Assembly: GCA_030390025.1 (NCBI GenBank)
Contig: CM059437.1
Span: 54,498,001-54,562,000 of the forward strand
DNA length: 64,000 nt
Source: Squalus acanthias
Lineage: Eukaryota
Reading direction: 5' to 3'
Shown here: in pieces, positions 14,971 through 60,629 of the stretch
Layout: the number at the start of each line of letters is the position of its first letter
Position numbering within the stretch: position 1 is the stretch's first letter
The notes under the pieces: generated by a model
What the model saw: the letters and a program-made list of their open reading frames with translations, nothing else
The model's database searches: none
What the model was told of the DNA's origin: nothing
Program-made: the position numbers and the translations under genes

Positions 14971-15584
14971 ACTGTTGGCGATAACTTATTTCTGGTCTTT
15001 CGAATAATCAGGATCGCATGCAAACCAATGTGGTGGGTATATTGTGTTTAATCGGAGTTTAGGATGGAATCTAACACACTAGTTATACAGCAAAACATAT
15101 GACTGTCACAATTAGCAGGTACCGGACCCGATCGGACAGACGGCTGGTGTGTGTGAACAAGTCTTCTTATTCATTTCCCTTCTTGTCTCACGTGTCCCTC
15201 TCTCTCTTTCTGAACTACCCAAGAGTTTTAGACTAGGGTCAGCATGGGTCCACTCTCGGAAGAGTGTTAGATCACCGATTTTACTCTTGGGAGCCCTTCG
15301 CTCCTTGGCTGAGCTAAGAGTTCTTTAGGTCTTCCTCTTATTTTATTTTTAGGGGTGGGCCTGAGGTAGAATATGGAAAGGACCATTTAACCTATAGAGG
15401 TTCCCCTTCAAACAAGGTGCCCAATGGCAAGTCGAGTTCTTTTTCTAAACGTACAGATGAAGAACCTCCCTCAGGGTGGTGGGTGGGGGGGCGGGTCTTC
15501 ACAACCATTATACATGCTTTCCTGTTTATACAAAAGTGAGAAGTCGCACAACACCAGGTTATAGTCCAATAGTTTTATTTGAAA

Positions 15585-15622
15585 TCACAAGCTTTCGGAG
15601 CTGCTGCTCCTTCGTCAGGTGA
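15585..15622 (-). ncRNA. Minimal type I hammerhead ribozyme motif (mirror arm)
   Basis: Minus strand tcac-CTGACGA-A-GGAGC(agca)GCTCC-GAAA-GC-TT-gtga. Confidence 0.78.
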
Positions 15623-15708
15623 AGTGAAGAAATACAAATCGTCACAGCATATATAGACAGAGAACATTGTTCTCTGTCTATATATGCTGTGCCGATTTGT
15701 ATTTCTTC

Positions 15709-15752
15709 AATTCACCTGACGAAGGAGCAGCAGCTCCGAAAGCTAGTGAATT
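15709..15752 (+). ncRNA. Minimal type I hammerhead ribozyme motif
   Basis: aattcac-CTGACGA-A-GGAGC(agca)GCTCC-GAAA-GC-TA-gtgaatt; 7-bp stem I, 5-bp stem II, palindromic AGCT stem III. Confidence 0.8.
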
Positions 15753-16203
15753 CAAATAAAACTGTTGAACTATAACCTTGTGTTGTGCGACTTCTCACTT
15801 TTGTCCACCCCAGTCCAACATCGGCATCTCCGCATAATTCCTGTTTATGCAGTTTTGAAGGCCAATCTATCTGGATGCCGCTTATCTCGTCTGACCCTGT
15901 ATCTCATCCTGTCTTGTCCTCCCTGGTCTGGAGTCAGTATCCCAGACACACCAAGCTTGGCCTTCAGACTCCTTCAGTCAGAGAACCCATTGTTGGAACT
16001 GCTTGCTATCAATTATTTATGTTCATGCAGCTGGCCATGCAAACTAACTATTTCATTTCATTAGTCAGACTATTGTATCATGAAATGAACCATAAATTCC
16101 CATAAATATCCTCTATTCTATGCCCTAAATACTAATTAACTTTTACATAACTTCACAAGCCGGTCTGTTAAGTGAACTCTAATTCCTACCTTAGCACTTT
16201 AAT

Positions 16204-23268: not shown

Positions 23269-26200
23269 GGGCCAAAAATTGCAGTCAACGGCATACCTCC
23301 GGAGGTACGCCCCCGACCGACGAAAAGAATATGCACCTACCAAGAAATAATGGAGGCTTGTAAGAAACGTACTGCAATAATCATGGGCGATTTTAATCAT
23401 CATATAGATTGGACAAATCAAATTGGCAAGGGTAGCCTTGAGGACGATTTCATAGAGTGTATTCGGGATGGTTCCTTAGAGCAATACGTTGAGGAACCAA
23501 CCAGGGAGCAGGCTATTTTAGATCTGGTAATGTGTAATGAGACAGGATTAATTAATGATCTCATAGTAAAGGATCCCCGAGGAAAGAGTGATCATAGCAT
23601 GGTAGAAATTCAAATTCAGTTTGAGGGAGAGAAACTTGGGTATGAAACTAGTGTCCCAAACTTAAATAAAGGCAATTACAAGGGTATGAGGACAGAGTTG
23701 ACTAAAATGGACTGGGAAAATAGATTAAACAGTAAGACGGTCGATCAGCAGTGGCAGACATTTAAGGAGATATTTCATAAATCTCAGCAAAGGTATATTC
23801 CAGTGAGAAAGAAGGGCTCTACGAGTAGGATGCACCATCCACGGCTAACTGAGGAAGTTAAGGATGGTATCAAATTGAAAGAAAAGGCATGCAATGTTGC
23901 GAAGATTAGTGGTAGGCCAGAGGATTGGGAAATCTTTAGAAACCAGCAAAGGATGACTAAAAAAATTATAATGAGGGAGAAGATAGAGTATGAGAGTAAA
24001 CTAGCAAATAATATAAAAACAGACAGTAACAGCTTCTACAGGTATATAAAAAGGAAGAGAGTTGCTAAAGTAAACGTTGGTCCCGTAGAGGATGAGACTG
24101 GGGAATTAATAATGGGAAATAGAGAAATGGCAGAGACTGTAATCGGTCTTCATGGTAGAAGTCACTAAAAACATCCCAATAATAATAGATAATCAAGGGG
24201 CTATAGGGAGGGAGGAACTTCAAACAATCTCTATCACTAGAGAAGAAGTACTAGGCAAACTAATGGGGCTAAAGGCTGACACGTCCCCTGGACCTGGTGG
24301 CCTGCATCCTAGGGTCTTAAAAGAAGCGGCTGCAGTGATAATGGATGCGTTGGTTGTAATCTACCAAAATTCCCTGGATTCTGGAGAGTACCCAGCGGAT
24401 TGAAAAACCGCAAATGTAACGCCACTATTCAAGAAAGGAGGGAGACAGAAAGTAGGAAACAATAGGTCAGTTACCCTAACATCTGTCATTGGGAAAATGC
24501 TGGAATCCATTATTAAGGAGGTAATAGCAGGACATTTAGAAAATCATAAGACAATCAAGCAGAGTCAACATGGTTTAATGAAAGGGAAATCATGTTTGAC
24601 AAATTTGCTAGAGGTCTTTGAGGATGTAACAAACAGGGTGGATAAAGGGGAACCAGTAGATGTAGTGTATTTGGATTTCCAGAAGGCATTCGATAAGGTG
24701 CTACATAAAAGGTTACTGCACAAGATAAGAGCGGGTTCGGGTAATATATTAGCATGGATAGGGGATTGGCTAACTAAAAGAAAACAGAGAGTCGGGATAA
24801 ATGGGTCATTTTCCGGTTGGCAATCAGTAACTAGTGGGATGCCACAGGGATCAGTGCTGGGGCCTTACCTATTTACAATCTATATTAATGACTTGGATGA
24901 AGGGACCGATGTACAGTAGCCAAATTTGCTGATGATACAAAGATAGGTGGGTTAGCAAGTTGTGAGCAGGACACAGGGAGTCTGCAAAGGGATATAGATA
25001 GGTTAAGTGAGTGGGCAAAAATTTGGCAGATGGAATATAATGTGGGAAAATGTGAGGTTATCCACTTTGGAAGGAAGATTGAAAAGGCAAATTATTATTT
25101 AAATGGAGTGAGACTACAAAATGCTGCGGTACAAAGGGATCTGGGGTCCTAGTACATGAAACACAAAAATTTAGCATGCAGGTACAGCAAGTAATTAGGA
25201 ATGCTAATGGAATGTTGGCCTTTATTGCAAGGGGTATGAAGTATAAAAGTAGGGAAGTTTTGATGCAACTTTACAGGGCGCTGGTGAGACCGCACCTGGA
25301 GTACTGTGTACAGATTTGGTCTCCATATTTAAGGGAGGATATAATTGCATTGGAGGCAGTTCAGAGAAGGTTCACTAGGTTGATTCCTGGGATGGAAGGG
25401 TTGTCGTATGAGGAAAGGTTGAGCAGGTTCGGCCTATACTCATTGGAGTTTAGAAGAATGAGAGGTGATCTTATTGAAACCTATAAGATTCTGAGGGGGA
25501 TTGACAGGGTGGATGCTGAGAGGAAGTTTCCCCTGGTTGGAGTATCTAGAATTCGGGGGCATAGTTTCAGAATAAGGGGTCACCCATTTAAGACGGAGAT
25601 GAGGAGGAATTTCTTCTCTCAGAGGGTCGTGAATCTTTGGAATTCTCTACCCCAGAGAGCTGTGAAAGCTGAGTCATTGAATGTATTCAAGGCGGAGATT
25701 GACAGATATTTGAACTACAAGGGAGTCAAGGGGTATGGGGAGAGAGCGGGAAAGTGGTGTTGAGGCCAAGATTGGATCAACCATGATCTTATTGAATGGC
25801 GGAGCAGGCTCGAGGGGCCGATTGGTCTACTCCTGCTCCTGTTTCTTATGTTCTTATGTTCTACCTGATGGCGGCCCTCCTGCGTAAACTTGCGCTCTGA
25901 AGCTATGAGTAGGAGGGCAGCGTAATGGCCCACGGATCCATGGGGCATGAGAACATAAGAAATAGGAGCGGGAGCAGGCCATTCGGCCCCTCGAGCCTGC
26001 CCCGCCATTTAATGAGATCATGGCTGATCCGATTTTGGCCTCAAATCCACTTTCCTGCCCGCTCCCCATTACCCTTGATTCCCCTGTTGCTCAAAAATCT
26101 CTCGATCTCAGCCTTGAATATATTCAATGACTCAGCTTCCACAGCTCTCTGGGGTAAAGAATTCCAAAGATTCACGACCCTCTGAGAGAAGAAATTCAGC

Positions 26201-31301: not shown

Positions 31302-31451
31302 GTAAGTAGAGGGCTGTAAAAGTCTTCAATATTCCTGCTCTTTTTATTACGCTGATCGGGTGCTGTACTTGAGCTTCACCGGTCTGAATTGCAATTATTT
31401 TCCACGATTTTACTGAAGGTCACTTTGTCAATAACTTTTTTATTTCTCCAG

Positions 31452-31801
31452 GTACCAACGCGGGTATTGTGCTGACTCAACCACCGTCCATCTCAACTTC
31501 ACTGGGAAAAACCGTCAAAATCACTTGCACCCTGTCCGGAGGCAGCATGGGCAGCTACTACACGAGCTGGTACTGGCAGAAACCCGGCAGTGCCCCTGCC
31601 TTTGTTTGGAGGACTATGATTCGAGCAGAGGTTCGGGGATTCCTGATCGATTCACTGGATCCAGGGACACGTCGAGCAACGTCATGCATTTAACCATCAG
31701 CAATTTACAATCCGGGGATGCCGCCGAATATTACTGTGGTGCCAGGGATAGCAGTGCTGTTGTATTCACTTTCGGGAAAGGAACTGAACTGAATCTGGGC
31801 A
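31452..31801 (+). pseudogene. Germline-joined VJ exon, cluster 2, frameshifted at about 31610
   Basis: ccag|GT ACC AAC GCG; [10 protein letters not shown]...ITCTLSGG...[14 protein letters not shown], then in another frame [17 protein letters not shown]...EYYCGARDSSAVVFTFGKGTELNLG, A|GTAAGT; 350 nt, so out of frame; no RSS between V and J. Confidence 0.9.
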
Positions 31802-33959
31802 GTAAGTAAATTTCTCGCTGTGTACGTCGGGGATTCTTAAAGTGTGAGTTTTCAATTGTTGGTTTAATCCGATTGTAGTGAAAATGCTTTCGAACATACA
31901 TTTATAATTCTCCGTTTCCCTCTTGGTGTTTAGAGGGAGATGTGCTTCTGTTATGTTTGTTAAATGCTCATGAAACTGTCGCACAGCAATTGCAATGTTA
32001 TGGATGAAGTTCCAAATAATTATTTTTAAGTAGGTGGAATTCAGCCTGCACCAGTGTAATTATAATTTATTGGTGATTTGAAACATATTCGTAAAGTATT
32101 GGTCAATCTGCATGATACGGCATTAAAACATATCTGGATACTTTTGACTGCCATACATTGTCCTCGCGCTGTGCTTCATGACTCGCGTAGAGCTAAAAAA
32201 AAAATATAACGTGAAATATTTTATAATTCCCCGACACGGTGCCATTAAAGATTCCCAATCAGAGATTGGGAGCGTGTGTCATTTCCATGCGATACTTTCA
32301 GTATTGTATTTCATGTTAGTCATAATTTCACTAGTAAGAAACAGATAATTATAAATCATAGTGATTGGGTTAGAAATTTTAATATAAGTTACAGATATTA
32401 AGAAGTTGATGTTCTTTTTTGAAGACAGGGATATTGAGGTTATCAGAGATAAAATGTGATTAGAAGTTTGTTGCCTTTGGAAAGACATTATGATTGGAGA
32501 CGGTCATATGCTGTCTTGTATAGTTCTTAGTTTTTAAGGGAACTGGGTAATATTGACTGAAGAGAGATTAGCTTAATTAGGTCAAATGATGCGTCCTAGA
32601 TAACTATGATCTCCTGGAGCTTGCTTGATCCCCTTCAAGAGTTTCAGAGAAATTTCCCAGAGCATTCACGGAATTGGCCACATGTTTTTCGCTGTTTTGG
32701 CTCCCCAGAAGATGATAGTACGGGAGGTTGCATGAGTGGATATCCTCAGCAACCTAGGGTCTGAAACTCCTTTCCCATCTTTCTATTCGTATGTTTGATC
32801 CCGCGCAGATATTATAATCACTGACAGACTGATTACCTTCGAATCCGATTAATTTTGTATGAATAGAACCGCGGGATCAGCATTTGAATTTTTATTTAAT
32901 TCTGTCAGTAAAAAATTATATACCTACAGGTACTCCGAAAGACTCAAACGGCATTTTTATTGGGATATTTAGCTACAGGCTGTAGAAAAGGCGCTGCGTT
33001 GTATTATAAATTGTTCCATTCAACTTACATCTGATGCAAGTTAAATTTCAAAAGCAATTTTAACAGAGTAGGAGATTACACTTTCAAACTATTTACACGT
33101 CTGGCGGTTGGTCTGTCTCCGTTGGTAACTTTCTCACGTCTGGATCAGAACGTTTTAGATTTAAGCCCCTTTTCCAGGCGTGACATCGGAACACTAGGGA
33201 GCCCCTTGCGCATGTTCCGCCATTCCATTGGATCATGGCTGATATGTACCTCAACTCCATCTATCTGCCTTTGCTCCCTATCCCTTGATAACCTTAGCCT
33301 ACAAGAATTTATCGATCTCAGTCCTGAAGATCTAATTTCACCCAATAGCCTCCACCTTTTTGGGGCAGGGAGTTTCAGATTTCCACCACCCTTTGTGTGA
33401 AAGAGTGCTTCCTGGTTTCACTCCTTAATGCCCTAGCTCTAATTTTAAGTCCTTGGCTTTTTGTTCTGGATTCCCCCACCAGAGGAAATGGAGATATGGA
33501 GGGAGTGCGTCATTGAAGGAAATGCCTTCTTTTGGATAACGCCATAAAGAGGAGTTCCACATTCCTGTTCAAGGGTTCGTTCACGATCCCGTTGCATTAT
33601 TCGAGGAACAGCAGAAAATCACTGCCCATACCCCCACCCCCGCCTCAATCATTGCCTTAAAAGAAATGGATTTCTGGCTTCTTGCTTTGATTAAGTTTAC
33701 CGTCACTGCGCTTCAGAGTAATATAAGTGAAAACTGATGTGGTGCTATATAATGCTACTCGTTATTCTTTTTATATTAACATAAACAAGTAGAAGCAGCT
33801 GAGCTTCCTGCAGCAGATGTTTCCTCGTCTGACGAGGCAGCTAAAAGCCGAAATACTGGGTAGCGATTACATCAAACAGCGTCTCAAGCGTGACTCTGCC
33901 AGGTGCAATTGTAGCCCCAGCATTCAAATTATAACCGTCTGAAAAGACTGAACAGACTG

Positions 33960-36480: not shown

Positions 36481-37630
36481 AATAACAACAGAAAACGCTG
36501 GAAAAACTCAGCAGGCCAGGCAGCATCCGTGGAGAGAGAAAGAGAGTTAACGTTTCAGGTCGATGACCTTTCATCAGAACTGGGAAGAGCCGGAAATCAA
36601 ATAGATTTAAGGCCAGGGTAAAGACTCCCACAGCTACCTGGACTACACTTCCTCCCACCCCGCCTCCTGTAAGGACTCTATTCCATTCTCCCAGTTTCTC
36701 CGTCTCCGCCGCATCTGCTCTGATGATGCCACCTTCCATACCAGTGCTTCAGACATGTCTTCCTTTTTCCTCAACCGAGGATTCCCCTCTACCGTGGTCG
36801 ACACGGCCCTCGACCGTGTCCGTTCTATCTCCCGCACATCTGCCCTCACTCCTGCCCCTCCCTCCCGGAACCACGATAGGGTTCCCCTTGTCCTCACCTT
36901 TCACCCCACCAGCCTCCACATTCAACGGATCATCCTCCGCCATTTCCGCCACATCCAGCGTGATCCCACCACCAAACACATCTTCCCCTCACCTCCCCTT
37001 TCAGCATTCCGTAGGGACCGCTCCCTCCGCGACACCCTAGTCCACTCCTCTACCACCCCCAGCACCCCTTCCCCTTCGCCCGGCACCTTCCCGTGCACGC
37101 GCAGGAGATGCAACACATGCCCTTATACCTCCCCTCTTCCCACTGTCCAGGGCCCCAAACACCCCTTCCAGGTGAAACAGCGATTTACTTGTACTTCCTG
37201 CAATTTAGTATACTGTATTCGCTGCTCACGATGTGGACTCCTCTACATTGGGGAGACCAAACGCAGATTGGGTGACCGCTTTGCGGAACACCTCCGTTCA
37301 GTCCGTAAGGGGGACCCCGAGCTCCCGGTGGCCTGTCACTTTAATTCACCGCTTCACTCCCACTCTGACCTCACCGTCCTCGGCCTATTACACTGTTCCA
37401 CGGAAGCTCAGCGTAAGCTCGAGGAACAGCACCTCATCTTTCGTTTAGGCACGCTACAGCCCTCTGGACTCAATATCGAGTTCAACAATTTTAGATCATA
37501 ACCTCAGCTCCAATCACATTTATATTTTATTTTATCCACCCTTTTATTTGTCCCCCCCCACCTTTTTTTTCCTCCTTGAAGCTGGCAGTTGTCCTTCATT
37601 CTGCCAGTGGATTTCACACTTCATTCAGCC
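36481..37630 (+). mobile_element. Penelope-like retroelement: inverted pLTR piece, then RT C-terminus and GIY-YIG endonuclease
   Basis: ORF 36755-37501 with CTRRRCNTC linker and NLVYCIRCSRCGLLYIGETKRRLGDRFAEH; absent from the paralogous site near 2255. Confidence 0.93.
36545..36581 (-). ncRNA. Minimal type I hammerhead ribozyme of the Penelope pLTR
   Basis: Minus strand agtt-CTGATGA-A-AGGTC(atc)GACCT-GAAA-CG-TT-aact; palindromic ACGT stem III. Confidence 0.8.
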
Positions 37631-47387: not shown

Positions 47388-50300
47388 TTTTTTTATTCGT
47401 TTATGGGATGTGGGCGTCGCTGGCAAGTCCAACATTTATTGCCCATCCCTAATTGCCCTTGAGAAGGTGGTGGTGATCGCCTACTTGAACCGCTGCAGTC
47501 CGTGTGGTCAAGTTACTCCCACAGTGCTGTTAGGTAGGGAATTCCAGGATTTTGACCCAGCGACGATGAAGGATCGGCGATACACTTCCAAGTCCCCAAG
47601 TCCAGGGCCCCAAATACTCCTTCCAGGTGAAACAGCGATTTACTTGTACTTCTTGCAATTAAGTATACTGTATTCATTGCTCACCATGCGGTCTCCTGTA
47701 AAATGGGGAGACCAAATGCAGATTGGGTGACTGCTTTGCGGAACACCTCCATTCAGTCCGTAAGGGTGACCCCGAGCTTCCGGTCGCCTGTCACTTTAAT
47801 TTTCTGCTCCACTCCCACTCTGACCTCTCCGTCCTCGGCCTCTTACACTGTTCCAATGAAGCTCAATGTAAGCTCGAGGAACAGCACCTCATCTTTCGAT
47901 TAGGCACTTTACAGCCTTCTGGACTCAACATCGAGTTCAACAATTTCAGACCATAACCTCTGCCCCGATGTCTATTTTCATTGTATTTATTTTTCTCGCT
48001 CTCACATGGCAGCTGTCGATCATTCTGCCATTGCCATTTACATTTCATCTAGAGTCACCTTTTGTTTCTTAACTTGTCCCATTACCATCTCCTTTTGCCT
48101 TGCACCATCATCCCTTGTGTCTCTTAATCTCACTTACCTTCCACCCTATTACAGACCTTCCCTTTTGTTCTTTCCTCCCCTCCCCCCTTTCCCTGCCCCT
48201 ACACTTGCTTAAAAACTTGTTCCATCTCCAACTTTTTCCCGTTCTGACGAAGGGACATCGACCTGAAATGTTAACTCTGTTTCTCTCTGCACAGATGCTG
48301 CCTAACCTGCTGAGTATTGCCCACATTTTTTCCTTATATTTCAGATTTCCAGCACCCGCATTATTTTGCTTTTGTACTTCCAAGTCAGGATGGTGTGTGA
48401 CTTGGAGGGGAACTTAGAGGTGGTGGTGTTCCCATGCGTCTGCTGCCCTTGTCCTTCTAGATTGTAGAGGTTGTGGGTTTGGGAGGTGCTGCCGAAGAAG
48501 CTTTGGCGAGTTGCTGCAATGCATCTTGTAGATGGTACACACTGCAGCCATGGTACGCCGGTGGTGGAGGAAGTGAATGTTTAAGGTGGTGGATGGGGTG
48601 CCAATCAAGTGGGCTGCTCTGTCCTGGATAGTGTCAAGCTTCTTGAGTGTTGTTGGAGCTGCACTCATCCAGGCAACTGGAGAATACTCCATCACACTCC
48701 TGACTTGTGCCTTGTAGATGGTGGAAAGGCTTTGGGGAGTCAGGAGGTAAGACACTCGCAGCTGAATTCCCAGCCTCTGACCCGCTCTTGTTGACACAGT
48801 ATTTATGTGGCCATAGTATTTAAGTGGCTGGTCCAGTTAAGTTTCTGGTCAATCGTAACCCCCAGAATGTTGATGGTGGGGGATTCGGCAATGGTAATGC
48901 CGTTGAATGTCAAGGGGCGGTGGTTAGACTCTCGCTTTTTGGAGATAGTCATTGCCTGGTACTTGCGTGGCGCGAATGTTACTTGCCACTTATCAGCCCA
49001 AGCTTGAATGCCATCCAGGTATTGCTGCATGTGGGCCTGGGCTGCTTCATTATCTGAGGAGTTGGGAATGGAACTGAACACTGTGCAATCATCAGCGAAC
49101 ATCAACACTTATGACCTTATGATGGAGGGAAGATCATTGATGAAGCAGCTGTAGTTGGCTGGGCCGAAGACACTGCCCTGAGGAACTCCTGCATCGATGT
49201 CCTGGGGAAGAGATGATCAACCGCCAACAACCACAACCATCTTCCTTTGTGCTAGGTATAACTCCAGCCAGTGGAGAGTTTTCCCCCTGATTCCCATTGG
49301 CTTCAATTTTACTAGGGCTCCTTGATGCCACACTCGGTCAAATGCTGCCTTAATGTCAAGGGCAGTCACTCTCACCTCACCTCTGGAATTCATCTCATGT
49401 CCATGATTGGACCAAGGCTGTAATGAGGACTGGAGCCGAGTGGCCCTGGCGGAACCCAAACTGAGCATCAGTGAGTAGGTTATTGGTGAGTAAGTGCCGC
49501 TTGATATTACTGTTGATGACACCTTCCATCACTTTGCTGATGATTGAGAGTAGACTGATGTGGCGGTAAATGGCCGGATTGGATTTGTCCTGTTTTTTGT
49601 AGACAGGACATACCTGGGTAGTTTTCCACATTGTCGGGTGGATGCCAGTGTTGCAGCTGTACTGGAACTGTTTGGCTCGAGGTGCGGCTAGTTCTGGAGC
49701 ACAAGTCTTCAGCACGACGGCCGGGATGTTGTAAGGGCCCATAGCCTTTGCTGTATCCAGTGCGCTCGGCCCATCAATTGGCAGAAGACTGGCTTCTGTG
49801 ATGGTGGGGCCCTCAGGAGATGGCTGAGTTGGATCATCCACTCGGTATTTCTGGTTGAAGATGGTTGCAAGTGCTTCAGTCTTGTATTTTGCACTCGCGT
49901 GCTCTGCTCCACCATCATTGAGGATGGGGATATTCATGGAGCCTCCTCCTCCCGTTAGTTTTCTTCAACTGTCCACCACCATTCACGAGTGGATGTGGCA
50001 GGACTGCAGAGCTTTGATCTGATCCGTTGGTTGTGGGATCGCTTAGCTCTGTCTATAGCATGCTGTTTCCGGTGTTTAGCATGCATGTAGTCCTGTGTTG
50101 TAGCTTCCCCAGGTTGGCACCTCATTTTCAGGTACGCCTGGTGCTGCTACTGGCCTGCTCTTCTGCACTCCACATTGAACCAGAGTTGGTCCTCTGGCTT
50201 GATGGCAATGGTAGTGTGAGCGAAGTGCCTGGCCATGAGATTACAGATTGTGGTGGAATACAATTCTGCTGCTGCTGATGGCCCACAGCGCCTCATGGAT

Positions 50301-55404: not shown

Positions 55405-55615
55405 AATGTCCTGGCAATATTTATCCATCATCCAACCTCACTAAAACAGATTGTCCCGCCATCATCGCATTTCTATTTGTGGGAGCTTGCTGTGCGCAGA
55501 CTGGCTGCAGTTTTTCCTACATTACAGCAGTGACTACACTTCAAAGGTACTTCTTTGGCTGTAAAGCGGGGTGGGACACCACGAGGTCGTGACAGGTGCT
55601 ATATCAATGCAAGTT
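55405..55615 (+). mobile_element. Deu-type SINE 3' fragment
   Basis: Similar to 59390-59595. Confidence 0.65.
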
Positions 55616-57692
55616 CTCCTTTCTTTTCTTAATAAAAATAGAAAATTGCCCTGACAATGAAAAATAACCCAGAGTAAGAATGTTGAAGCCAGTCTGTCAC
55701 AATCTTCTGTCTCTTTAAATGGCAGTTCGCACCGAACATGTGTTACAAGCATCAGCTGCCAATGACAACCTTTCGGTAAAATGGTTTAATTAATGAAAAT
55801 CACCGAAGAAAAGGATGGAAATATTGTTCAATCATAGAATTAGATGTCAGAGGCGCTACCGCTACAAATGGTTAAGATATTGAGGTGCCGTGTCTGCTAC
55901 AGCGGCGCGTCTCACCAATACCAGGTTTGCCCGGGTCGGTTTAACAATCTATTGCCATTCTGAGACGTTCGCCCTGGAGCCTACAACTTCGCCTTGCTTT
56001 CTTTACGCTTCAATATGGAGGCTGAAAATGCGACTCTCCCTGACAAGAGCCATCAACCCCTATTATCACAGTTGGTATAATCGCCCTGCAACACCCGGAG
56101 TATCGCCGCATTTTCTGGTACTGAAATGTCTGGAGTCGGGTGAAATTATTGAGCAGGTTTTACTGTCAGATCAGATTGTTATCTAACCACCAAGCGTTTG
56201 ACAGTGAATTCTTTTAACACTGGTTTGGAATGTAGATTTCCAGATATAAAATCTTAATGGAACAATTTATAATGTAATGGAAGATCTTTGCTGTTTTTAT
56301 CTCATGTTCGCCCACTGCACGCTGATGTAATAACCAAGGTAAAATTGCGATAGAGTATTCGCATTTTCTGCAATATTACTACTCTCGCTGACACGAATCA
56401 CAGAACCAGCAGCAAAGCGCAATGGAGTGAGTACAAAGACATGTACAAAAATCTGAAAACGTATTCCGCGAATTTCACAATAAATTGATCGGCGAGGAAG
56501 GTAGTGTGCCCGTGAAAATTAAACATCCTGCGAATCATTGATGATTACTGCATGTAGAAAATAGATCACTGTTAATGATTATTAATACCTGAACTGAACG
56601 CAACAGTTTGATTGCTATAGTTATCGGGAATTAATGTGAAATGTAAGACTGAGAATTTTGTACTGAACGGGATTCTCTTGGAGACGAGTGTGAGAGATTT
56701 ACAGCAAGTAGCCACACTATCCTCCTGCAGTCTTAGTCCGAGTATGGTTACTAAATCGCAAAAGTGCTTTCATGTGAATTAAAACTGTATTTGTTGAAAC
56801 TTTTGAATTTTTGTTTTTATAATTTTACCAACAATTCATTCCAGCAGGGTTGTAGTGACCGGGTGTAATCCAGTCTGAAAGACTATGCTGGTCTCATATC
56901 ATCATAGAATTGTCCAGCTCAGAAGGAGGTCGATCACGCCCGCCCCAGCTCTTTGAAAAAGCATTCCACTTTGTCCATTTCCCAGACATTTTTTGTCCTT
57001 CATCAAATGTTTATCTGCTTCCCTTTAAACACTACCATGGATTCTGCTCGCTCCACTCTTAAAGTTAGGAAACTACACGTTTTCACAATCCCTTGGATAA
57101 ATAAAATATCCTGACCTCTCCCTTCGTCCTTCTAGCGATGATGTTAAATTGATGTCCTCTGGTTACCGAGGGACCGATCAGTGAAAATAGATTTATTTTC
57201 ATTTGCTGGAATAAAATGGCTCAGAATTCTGAACACATCCAGCAGATCACATCGTAAGCTTCTGGTGAATAGAGCTTCTCGCGTCTCCTCTCAGAACTAA
57301 AACCTCGCAGTAGTTAATATCTTAATAAATTGCTCCTGTACCCTCTCCAAGTCTTTGACACCCTTCCTAAAGTCGGGTGCCCTTTCTGCCTGGCTATCTC
57401 TTGAATATCAGTGGATGCTGATTCACAAGCTCTGTATAAATAATCTTAAATTATACTAAATAATCTACCAAGAAAATGATTTTAAGGGATTGTTTCGTCC
57501 GCAATGTTGCAAATGTTAGGGGACACTTTGATGAGCGCTTTAGAATCCAAATTTAAAAAGTGACTGTTGCAATCGCCATAAGAGAATCCGGCACGGATAT
57601 TTCTGTTCCAGGGAACAACGACCAAAAAAAACAAAAATCGAAAACTACTAGTTGACAAATCCCAAGTTGCAAACTATGAATAATTTACTTAC

Positions 57693-58034
57693 TGCTCAGA
57701 TTCAGCTTGGTTCCTCTCCCGAAAGTTAATCTATCACCGCTCCACACAGCACAGTAATAATCGGCGGCGTCCTCGGACAGCACGTTGGTGATGGTTAAAT
57801 GCATCTTGTTACTCGATGAGTCCACAGACCCTGTAAATCGATCTGGAATTCCCGAACCTCTGGTGGAGCCCTCATACCAAACAAACACAGGGGCACTGCC
57901 GGGTTTCTGCCAGTACCAGCTCGTGTACCAGCTACCAATGTTACCTCCGGACAGGGTACAGGTGATCGTAACGGTTCTCCCCGGTGTGCTTGAGATGGAC
58001 GCGGGCTGAGTCAGGACAGGATCGGCGTTTGTAC
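57693..58034 (-). CDS. Germline-joined, in-frame VJ exon, cluster 3
   Basis: caacag|GT ACA AAC GCC; DPVLTQPASIS...[47 protein letters not shown]...DYYCAVWSGDRLTFGRGTKLNLS, A|GTAAGT; 342 nt, open; no RSS. Confidence 0.95.
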
Positions 58035-58169
58035 CTGTTGAATAACAAATAATTGATCAGTCGCACTCTGTGAAATTCTGAATAATCAGATCCGTTCAAC
58101 ACAACCACAACGAAACAAATCAGGGCAATGTAAAAAGCAGTGATATTAATGCTTAAGTCCTGCACTTAC

Positions 58170-58218
58170 TGTGGAGAAAGAGCACCAGTGCGGCGACAAA
58201 CCGAACCCATTCAGTCAT
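58170..58218 (-). CDS. IgL leader exon, cluster 3
   Basis: MTEWVRFVAALVLFLH + A|GTAAGT; homologous to the cluster 2 leader. Confidence 0.92.
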
Positions 58219-58284: not shown

Positions 58285-58349
58285 CTAAACCTCTCCTTAA
58301 GAAGTTTCAAACGTCGCAACGTCACTGAGTATTAATTATTCATGCAAAT
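58285..58349 (-). promoter_or_regulatory. IgL promoter, cluster 3: octamer plus conserved TTAAGGAGAGGTTTAG box
   Basis: ATTTGCAT (-) at 58342-58349; 16-mer at 58285-58300; CACGTG E-box just upstream of the octamer. Confidence 0.85.
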
Positions 58350-58637: not shown

Positions 58638-59167
58638 TAAAGGGAGTTACGCACTGTGAGAAAAACATGGAAGAATTAAGGGAGATTTTTGAAAGGATTT
58701 TTATTAAAGGATCTGAGAGATCTATTTGAGCTCACATGAGAAAGTGAGGTTCAGAATGTTGATGTATAGAAGGAGTAAGGGTGAATGAATCAAATGGAAC
58801 AGTTGTTTGTTTAGTCTTCTGATAGATACACAACATTGCTTTGTGCTGCCGGGTGTGTGATGTCATTGTATGAACCTTAGTACGAAATTCCAGAGCTTCC
58901 TATTTTAATGGGACAGTTAATCATTTAAAAATAGCAATCCAAAATATATTTCTTACAAATACATTAAATGTCTTTACCTAATATTTCACAGCAGATTTCA
59001 CTAGAGACTTGAGCACAAAAATCTAGGCTGACACTTCAGTGCTGTACTGAGGGAGTGCTGCACTGTCGGAGGTGTGGTCTTTTAGATGAGACGTTAAACC
59101 GAGCCTCATCTGCCCTCTCATGTGGACGTAAAAGATCCCCTGGCACTATTTCGAGTTTTATTTGAAA

Positions 59168-59209
59168 TCACAAGCTTTCGGAGCTATCGATCGCCCCTTC
59201 CTCAGGTGA
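59168..59209 (-). ncRNA. Minimal type I hammerhead ribozyme motif (mirror arm)
   Basis: Exact reverse complement of 59221-59262. Confidence 0.78.
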
Positions 59210-59220
59210 ATTAGTGTACT

Positions 59221-59262
59221 TCACCTGAGGAAGGGGCGATCGATAGCTCCGAAAGCTTGTGA
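59221..59262 (+). ncRNA. Minimal type I hammerhead ribozyme motif
   Basis: tcac-CTGAGGA-A-GGGGC(gatcgata)GCTCC-GAAA-GC-TT-gtga. Confidence 0.78.
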
Positions 59263-60629
59263 TTTCAAATAAAACTGTTGGACTATAACCTGGTGTTGTG
59301 CGACCTCTCAATTTTGTCCACCCCAGTCCAACACCGGCATCTCCGCATCATGACCACTATTTCGAAGAGCAGGGGAGTTATCCCCGGTGTCCTGGTGGAT
59401 ATTTATCTCCCAATCAACATCACAAAAACAGATTATCTTGTCACTATAATATTGCTGTTTGTGGCAGCTTGCTGTGCGCAAATTGGTTGCCGCGTTTTCT
59501 ACAATACAACAGTGACTACACTTCAAAAGTACTTCATTGGCTGTAAAGCGCTTTAGGACGTCCTGAGGTCGTGAAAGGCGCTATATAAATGCATTTTTTG
59601 AAGCATTGAATCAAGTAACTTTTTCATTGTCGAGTTGAAGGGCGCAGAAGACAGCAAGATGTAAAGATTTAATCATCGCAATGGGAGAGCACTGACGGTG
59701 ACGAGTTCAGATAACGTCTCATAAGTATACGTCTGCTGCTCTTTCTATACATAGGCCTAAATCATCCCGTTTTTCGGCTATTCTGTACACGCACCACTGA
59801 AGAGGAGGGAATCATCGAAATTTCACAAGACAATTGACAATAATTTATGACAAAAATCGATAAAACTACTCTAGCAAATAGTTTTCTACTTTTCCTGTTT
59901 TAAGCACACTTTTTAGTGTGAAATGTCTTGGCGATGAGTTAATCCCTGCTCTGCAATTGAAAAACATTGGCCCCGCTGGTGATCGGGAGAGTGTAGGATG
60001 GTGTATAATATAGGCTAACAGATTAGTATGTTAATGGCTTTTATGCAATAGTTAGCATAGAGAGCTACAGAAAAGGAGGAAATGTAGAAACCGCAGGGTT
60101 ACATTGGTGTAATTCGGCAGAAGGTTTAGAATATCCGTCGTGAAATTATGAAAAATACTTCAGAAGTCAGTACTAATATCTGTCTGTTATAAATGTATTC
60201 TGCGAGATGGAGCCTAATACATGGTTCAGATTAGTTTGTTAGGATTCTTTAGGCTAAGCTAATCAGCCGAAGGTGTCAGTTAGAGGCAATTGCGGAAGCA
60301 TCAAAGTGTTTATGTAACGAATTATAGCTAGTTTCAAGACAAGTTGCCTTGTTTAAGTTGTTATTATTCTGGTAACCTTTATAACCGCAAAATTGATTTT
60401 TCAGTACTGATTAGAAATGTATTTCACAGTCCAGTGAGTATGAAGCATATGTGGTGCAACATTGTCACCTACTGGCGTACTAGCATATGGCACACACGAA
60501 TCAAATAACAGTAGATTTGAATTAATGGCACAGGCCACCTGTTATACGCTTCGCTTGATATTCAGTTCTTTGAAGGCAGTGGAACTGAATATCATGGCAC
60601 ATTATGATTTTGAATTCAGTTAATTAAAA

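Follow-up and report, generated by a model that had tools for sequence, protein, structure and literature searches.

The window, by which we mean the whole 64,000-nucleotide stretch of Squalus acanthias DNA that was analysed, contains immunoglobulin light-chain V-J and C frames amid many LINE fragments. The light-chain clusters, in which V and J share a single frame, lie in both orientations (31435-31809 on the plus strand, 57685-58056 on the minus strand), with C frames at 473, 34692 and 54102 and an octamer upstream of each V. A clustered layout of this kind would point to a cartilaginous fish. About 0.8 kb from the octamer at 58342, which precedes the V-J frame on the minus strand (57685-58056), a palindromic insertion interrupts a SINE copy, the position that an earlier note on this DNA had given for it. 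The SINE, which we take to be SacSINE1/Deu, has a second copy in the window at 55407-55611. No paralogous empty site was found within the window, where similarity to the other V region ends at 58218. Elsewhere, at 25607-26197, LINE 3' ends that are presumably CR1-like form a tail-to-tail inverted pair with diverged arms of about 215 nt.

A palindromic insertion in a SINE copy

The insertion, referred to here as the 59.2-kb copy, and a sister insertion at 15.5 kb are made up as follows (TSD, target site duplication).

59003..59593, plus strand: host SINE with a T-rich 3' end; very high depth in all four public runs compared, loose ends at 59003 and 59590-93
59144..59154, plus strand: left copy of the 11-bp TSD (SINE sequence), from repeat comparison and empty SINE joints in contigs
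59155..59210, minus strand: inverted arm, a 5'-truncated element end with a minimal hammerhead on the minus strand (core start 59205); its outer end lies opposite 59275
59211..59219, no strand: spacer of 9 nt, likely junction filler
59220..59275, plus strand: direct arm, reverse complement of the inverted arm
59221..59262, plus strand: minimal type I hammerhead, parsed against the consensus in the supplement of PMC4209133, as far as that supplement was available
59276..59333, plus strand: 3' stem-loop of the family, 9-bp stem (59276-84/59325-33) and 40-nt loop; with a mismatch in the 15.5-kb copy
59318..59354, plus strand: corresponds to the one-sided tail (34 nt) in the 15.5-kb copy and is 3 nt longer
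59355..59365, plus strand: right copy of the 11-bp TSD, from repeat comparison
15530..15838, no strand: the sister insertion, a member of the family's short-loop subfamily, with arms 15530-15666 and 15668-15804

Over 56 bp the inverted arm (59155-59210) is the exact reverse complement of the direct arm (59220-59275) across the 9-nt spacer (59211-59219), and the pairing comes to 57 bp if the last base of the TSD (59154) and 59276 are counted. When the element was shuffled with its dinucleotides preserved, the longest arm was 11 bp or less in 100 of 100 shuffles. The TSD (59144-59154, repeated at 59355-59365) has no other copy in the window on either strand. Public contigs were compared at 85% identity for four of 24 runs, two of them from one organism (organism A, runs X1 and X5) and two from other organisms, and in all four SINE contigs join 59154 to 59364-59367; the SINE thus normally carries the 11-bp site once, and the duplication is a true one. 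The exact arms, the shuffles and the empty SINE site bear out the earlier description of a 200-bp insert with 56-bp perfect arms, a 9-nt loop and an 11-bp TSD. One contig of X5 joins 59352 to 59052, that is, the end of the family tail to another position of the SINE, and represents another insertion into a SINE copy.

None of the contigs listed spans the exact junction of the 59.2-kb insertion, as would be expected of an assembly artefact. The clean TSD of the SINE site and the non-palindromic spacer speak against this, as do the older sister copy with its seven arm mismatches and related junctions in contigs of two studies, and we regard the probability of an artefact as next to negligible.

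The mirror symmetry covers 59155-59275 only, leaving 79 nt at the right end without a partner. Derivation of the unit from a MITE or DNA transposon was rejected, there being no terminal inverted repeats at both unit ends. Within the 79-nt tail, 59276-59284 and 59325-59333 form an exact 9-bp stem; stems of at least 9 bp were reached in 10 of 1000 shuffles of the tail. The further inverted pair that had been noticed in the tail is therefore real, and it is a feature of the family, found in both window copies. The short arm of the 59.2-kb copy ends exactly at the foot of this stem (59275/59276).

The hammerhead motif and its folding

The hammerhead assignment is a manual parse against a published consensus, that of the minimal hammerhead ribozymes (min-HHRs) of metazoan Penelope-like elements (PLEs). 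In the direct arm, stem I is formed by 59221-24 and 59259-62 and the core by 59225-31, followed by a bulged A (59232), stem II (59233-37 and 59246-50) with an 8-nt loop, GAAA (59251-54) and a palindromic 4-nt stem III (59254-57), with a predicted cut after 59258. Each arm of the 59.2-kb copy fits the min-HHR consensus in its CUGANGA core, unpaired base, G-C-closed stem II, GAAA, palindromic stem III, UH and stem I, and the parse holds in all four family arms in the window, one of the 15.5-kb arms having a different cut triplet. Rfam returned four matches over the window at E≤1, none of them to a hammerhead; its matches to miRNA families at 15.5 kb and 25.8 kb merely reflect long hairpins. The core pattern itself has eight matches in the window, including 23849 and 33829, the last of which does not parse into stems. 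Across the two subfamilies, represented by few copies, stem variation amounts to a single change on one side of stem II (A-U to G-U), and in a second hammerhead family in the window the stems differ yet still pair.

Folded as a monomer, the direct arm does no better than shuffled sequence (z 0.39 and -0.20), as expected for a min-HHR; in the portion of PMC4209133 available, cleavage by these ribozymes is described as weak and as occurring only in dimers. The two hammerheads lie head to head on opposite strands with one motif per strand, and it is here that the term 'twin hammerhead', used in the earlier note, fails: an RNA reading through in either direction carries a single sense motif behind its own exact antisense, and in plus-strand transcripts starting at 59155 or at 59190 stems I and II are predicted to pair with a probability of 0.0. 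Only with a start inside the spacer does predicted pairing on the plus strand rise to about 0.9 for stem II and 0.4-0.5 for stem I. As each transcript would contain one sense motif and its antisense, the palindrome is predicted to be unable to supply a dimer partner and to silence its own ribozyme. The folding models likewise predict that the 59.2-kb copy is a dead end, its read-through RNA forming a 56-bp hairpin that hides the single ribozyme.

As DNA, the palindrome has a predicted hairpin energy of -70.6 kcal/mol, and palindromic copies of this kind could extrude cruciforms; if transcribed, they would yield dsRNA hairpins of at least 56 bp. The loop II hexamer at 59239-59244 is self-complementary, as is its mirror in the left arm, and in a predicted two-copy fold the loops pair and stem II is swapped between molecules. 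On this model the hexamer could add a contact to the dimer, or it could be a matter of chance.

Sister copy, subfamily and other centres

The sister insertion at 15.5 kb has arms of 137 nt with seven mismatches, a 1-nt spacer and a 34-nt tail, within a TSD of 11 bp counting one shared base and of 10 bp without it. The earlier note had given the two copies the same 3' terminus and different centres. Their 3' parts are indeed 88.6% alike over 132 nt, with long ends 18-21 nt beyond the 3' stem-loop in both, and the centres do differ, the 9-nt spacer of the 59.2-kb copy lying at the foot of stem I and the 1-nt spacer of the 15.5-kb copy 43 nt further upstream. The ends of the inverted arms, however, are unlike: the arm stops about 42-44 nt earlier in the 59.2-kb copy, leaving an unpaired 3' part of 79 nt as against 34 nt, and in the 15.5-kb copy the short end lies within the loop that the family's 3' stem encloses (at the equivalent of 59317). 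Judged from the two sequences, the 59.2-kb copy is the 15.5-kb design, shorter at its centre and left end. The core variant and the 8-nt loop II, reported as common to both arms and absent from the 15.5-kb arms, were confirmed.

The public contigs place this loop variant in context. All contig figures are those of the contigs listed and so are minima, about 55% of run X5 was read and only centres within the compared stretch are visible. Unique flanks have depths of about 14 (X1), about 13 (X5) and about 60 and 20-30 (the other-organism runs); the 3' part of the element reaches 1-5.5 million in the organism A runs, contig depth not being copy number. At arm position 59187 the depth is 823,207 in X1 and 647,082 in X5 among the contigs listed. 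The 8-nt loop II is the usual form in organism A, a loop 4 nt shorter accounting for 33,564 of 823,207 (X1) and 59,818 of 647,082 (X5), and in the two other-organism runs the long-loop arm has a depth of 0 at 59187 though the flanks are covered, contigs showing presence and not absence. Among the contigs listed, the loop variant thus appears to mark a young subfamily of organism A.

This affects what can be drawn from the identity of the arms. The earlier note had taken the shared variants to mean that both arms were copied from one template. A single insertion event is upheld by the one TSD round the unit and by the other centres in the contigs, but the shared variants are no proof, because the 8-nt loop is common in the subfamily, so that any two young copies would share it and one template is not proven. 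By the same token two independent copies from so young and abundant a subfamily could be identical, and PLEs tend to insert beside earlier copies (PMC6765202), so the palindrome might have arisen after insertion, by a second copy landing in the first or by a template switch in replication or repair that mirrored an arm. This we consider highly improbable, since a single TSD surrounds the whole unit with no inner TSD, and both family copies in the window (2/2) have the palindromic form.

At the centre of the palindrome the depth falls sharply: in X1 it is 3,496 at 59211 and 4,671 at 59216, compared with 823,207 at 59187. A centre depth of about 0.4% of the arm depth means that the spacer is not the common upstream sequence of the family and that centres here are a small minority; the spacer is likely junction filler. 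Other centres are also seen. One has a spacer 5 nt shorter and forms a perfect palindrome (depth 1,579 in X1, 169 in X5), another has a spacer 3 nt shorter (205 in X1, 58 in X5), and a third lies inside loop II, joining 59184 to 59246 in all four runs and three organisms (depths 144, 321, 65 and 21), with short sides of 21-24 nt. A centre in loop II leaves no intact core, and it identifies stem II as a point of fold-back or annealing. In the organism A runs palindromic junctions recur at several- to about 100-fold the unique-flank depth, to which fold-back chimeras of library preparation could add. Together with the 59.2-kb and 15.5-kb copies, the three seen in contigs make at least five different centres, and these other centres favour fresh formation of the palindrome at each insertion.

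The alternative is that the palindrome is a non-autonomous mini-element, transcribed and inserted anew in its entirety. The perfect-centre junction, at a depth of 1,579 against a flank of 14 in X1, could represent about 100 loci, and PLE ends can be mobilised in trans according to the part of PMC3846280 available. In X5, however, of which about 55% was read, the same junction reaches only 169 against a flank of 13, and a family spread in this way is hard to square with five or more centres or with a centre depth of about 0.4% of that of the arms (3,496/823,207). The RNA of the unit is, moreover, predicted to be a 56-bp hairpin without a free ribozyme, and retrozymes are head-to-tail and not head-to-head tandems in the available text of bioRxiv 10.64898/2026.07.22.740005. 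Whole-unit replication is in our view improbable.

Element identity, formation and known systems

In the PLE insertions described so far, an inverted and 5'-truncated copy as a rule occupies the 5' end, the tail is one-sided and 30-40 nt long, and the TSD measures 8-10 bp (PMC3846280, PMC8557442 and PMC8969392, in the portions available), and pairs of min-HHRs on opposite strands 100-700 bp apart are already on record in the accessible part of PMC4209133. The 59.2-kb copy shares with PLEs a min-HHR in a terminal repeat, an inverted 5'-truncated copy adjoining the 5' end and a short TSD. The 15.5-kb sister copy matches the described pattern exactly. As to the optional tail of 30-40 nt, the one-sided stretch measures 34 nt in the sister copy and 79 nt in the 59.2-kb copy. 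The latter asymmetry exceeds the PLE range, and at 11 bp the TSD is longer by one base than the 8-10 bp given for PLE insertions in the passages available; both count against PLE identity. Membership in the PLEs rests on anatomy because the searches described below tied no RT/GIY-YIG ORF to the 59.2-kb family. On balance, we put at about 0.85 the probability that the 200-bp unit is a heavily 5'-truncated PLE insertion, the hammerhead-bearing end of which was copied once in each direction between 11-bp TSDs. The earlier suggestion of a very abundant class of mini-elements is right as to the abundance of the family, but a new class is not supported, the anatomy being that already known from PLE insertions.

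A 30-codon open frame (59263-59352) is closed by an ATG at the right end of the element (59350-59354), where, as in related shark repeats, the PLE ORF may start, although protein searches did not confirm this. As an ORF leader this frame found one match among 1.84 billion proteins. The match, P0001, was rejected, being a 4,818-aa repeat protein in which 15 weak stretches are summed, without RT or GIY-YIG domain; in a protein search with a 41-codon version neither of two candidates was upheld. Pattern scans for the 3' part of the family in public collections gave no hits in viral contigs, metagenome contigs (two scans) or prokaryote genomes, all four scans being empty. Three 17-nt motifs had no match in literature text, the available part of the supplement of Craig et al. 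(PMC8557442) gave only chance matches of 8-9 nt, and no report of the shark family or of stump-only palindromes was found in the open-licence literature (Repbase and Dfam lying outside the search).

The second hammerhead family in the window appears to show a link between hammerhead and coding sequence. Its inverted hammerhead at 36577 (minus strand) lies directly 5' of a truncated 296-codon ORF (36611-37501) whose GIY-YIG match is weak, its E of 2.3e-4 and 21.8 bits falling below the Pfam cut-off of 22.6 bits; the frame belongs to this family and not to the 59.2-kb family. Within 36490-37501 the inverted hammerhead end thus precedes a PLE-like ORF that lacks its 5' part, and the CX4CX2C linker of this ORF is Neptune-like as such linkers are described in the available part of PMC8557442. 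The core search of the window found no direct hammerhead after the 36.6-kb ORF, and none of nine candidate stretches in viral contigs was confirmed as a relative of that ORF. At 48236-48370 a lone hammerhead end of the second family continues beyond the part that resembles the 36.5-kb inverted end, and it may carry the tail of that family.

How, then, might the two arms have been made? In the case of PAc, a PLE of the anole, both target strands are cut and extended with uncleaved RNA as the main substrate, and the tail is bounded by two start sites of reverse transcription, of which one lies in an AC-rich stem-loop (PMC11167929, in the part available). For the 59.2-kb copy we envisage that a PLE enzyme would have made a staggered 11-bp cut in the SINE and that both cut strands would have served as primers on uncleaved element RNA close to its 3' stem-loop, with synthesis beginning at the tail end (59354) on one side and at the stem foot (59275) on the other. 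Each cDNA would then have ended at the hammerhead's 5' edge, the two being joined through 9 nt of filler. If the element is a PLE, we give such two-sided priming even odds.

A start site on RNA would explain the stop at the stem foot, but a DNA-templated fold-back that stalled there would explain it equally well. A single PLE cDNA might have used its own 3' end as primer and itself as template until the 9-bp hairpin halted the copying, and then been joined to the left target end. A polymerase on single-stranded cDNA could stall precisely where the short arm ends (59275/59276), centres are found at natural micro-palindromes (the loop II joint of 59184 to 59246), and self-priming has been proposed for PLE inverted junctions, in an antisense-template form (PMC3846280, in the portion available). 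On the other hand, the canonical short end is a start site of reverse transcription on RNA in vitro (PMC11167929, same part), and a spacer unlike the common upstream sequence of the family suits end joining. Fold-back is the main rival to two-sided priming; we hold it to be rather less likely than not once PLE origin is granted, and slightly less likely still taken as a whole.

A bolder reading is that a young, lineage-restricted subfamily has turned into a non-autonomous mini-element ending at the 5' hammerhead edge, with some copies propagated as palindromes of fixed form, the hexamer gained in loop II as a second dimer contact and the stem foot as a third, undescribed start or stall site that reveals how PLE inverted copies are built. 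We think this combination rather improbable. The class and the insertion pattern have already been described, and the points that still hold interest are the asymmetry of 79 nt and the loop II hexamer. Taken alone, the 59.2-kb insert is a further dead example of a known insertion pattern, with value as data: whether inverted copies in PLEs originate by two-sided priming or by self-priming is a question for which a genome rich in young, stump-sized copies allows arm ends and centres to be counted.

Among known systems, the non-LTR retrozymes (bioRxiv 10.64898/2026.07.22.740005, in the text available) are likewise short, non-coding, PLE-derived and furnished with a type I hammerhead. Identity with them was rejected: same-strand tandems are required in the same text, and the 59.2-kb unit is a single head-to-head inverted pair. 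In PAc, a Poseidon-type PLE of Anolis carolinensis (PMC11167929, in the portion available), a hammerhead is likewise followed by a stem-loop, the loop of which holds the short end, with the tail ending beyond. The PAc structure, counted by eye from a figure in that portion, has a stem of about 7 bp and a loop of 37 nt as against 9 bp and 40 nt here, and the two are likened by layout and not by sequence. The short end of the 59.2-kb copy lies at the stem foot, in contrast to its position in the loop in the PAc figure, and whereas the ORF of PAc starts inside the hammerhead by the same source, frames through the motif are closed in the 59.2-kb copy.

The min-HHRs of metazoan PLEs resemble the motif described here in the core, the bulged base before stem II, G10.1-C11.1 and the 4-bp stem I, as well as in the palindromic stem III, the U-rich 5' and AU-rich 3' flanks and the pairs on opposite strands (PMC4209133, in the parts available). 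The alignment in those parts contains no shark example; loop II of the 59.2-kb copy has its self-complementary hexamer, and cleavage is here a prediction. The closest parallel in the shape of the insertion is provided by the complex insertions of EN+ PLEs, with an inverted pLTR and a one-sided tail (PMC3846280 and PMC8557442, as far as available). Compared with these, the 59.2-kb copy is without any ORF remnant, and has an asymmetry of 79 and not 30-40 nt and a TSD of 11 and not 8-10 bp; common to both are the head-to-head 5'-truncated copy, the extension at one end, the short TSD and the palindromic junction.
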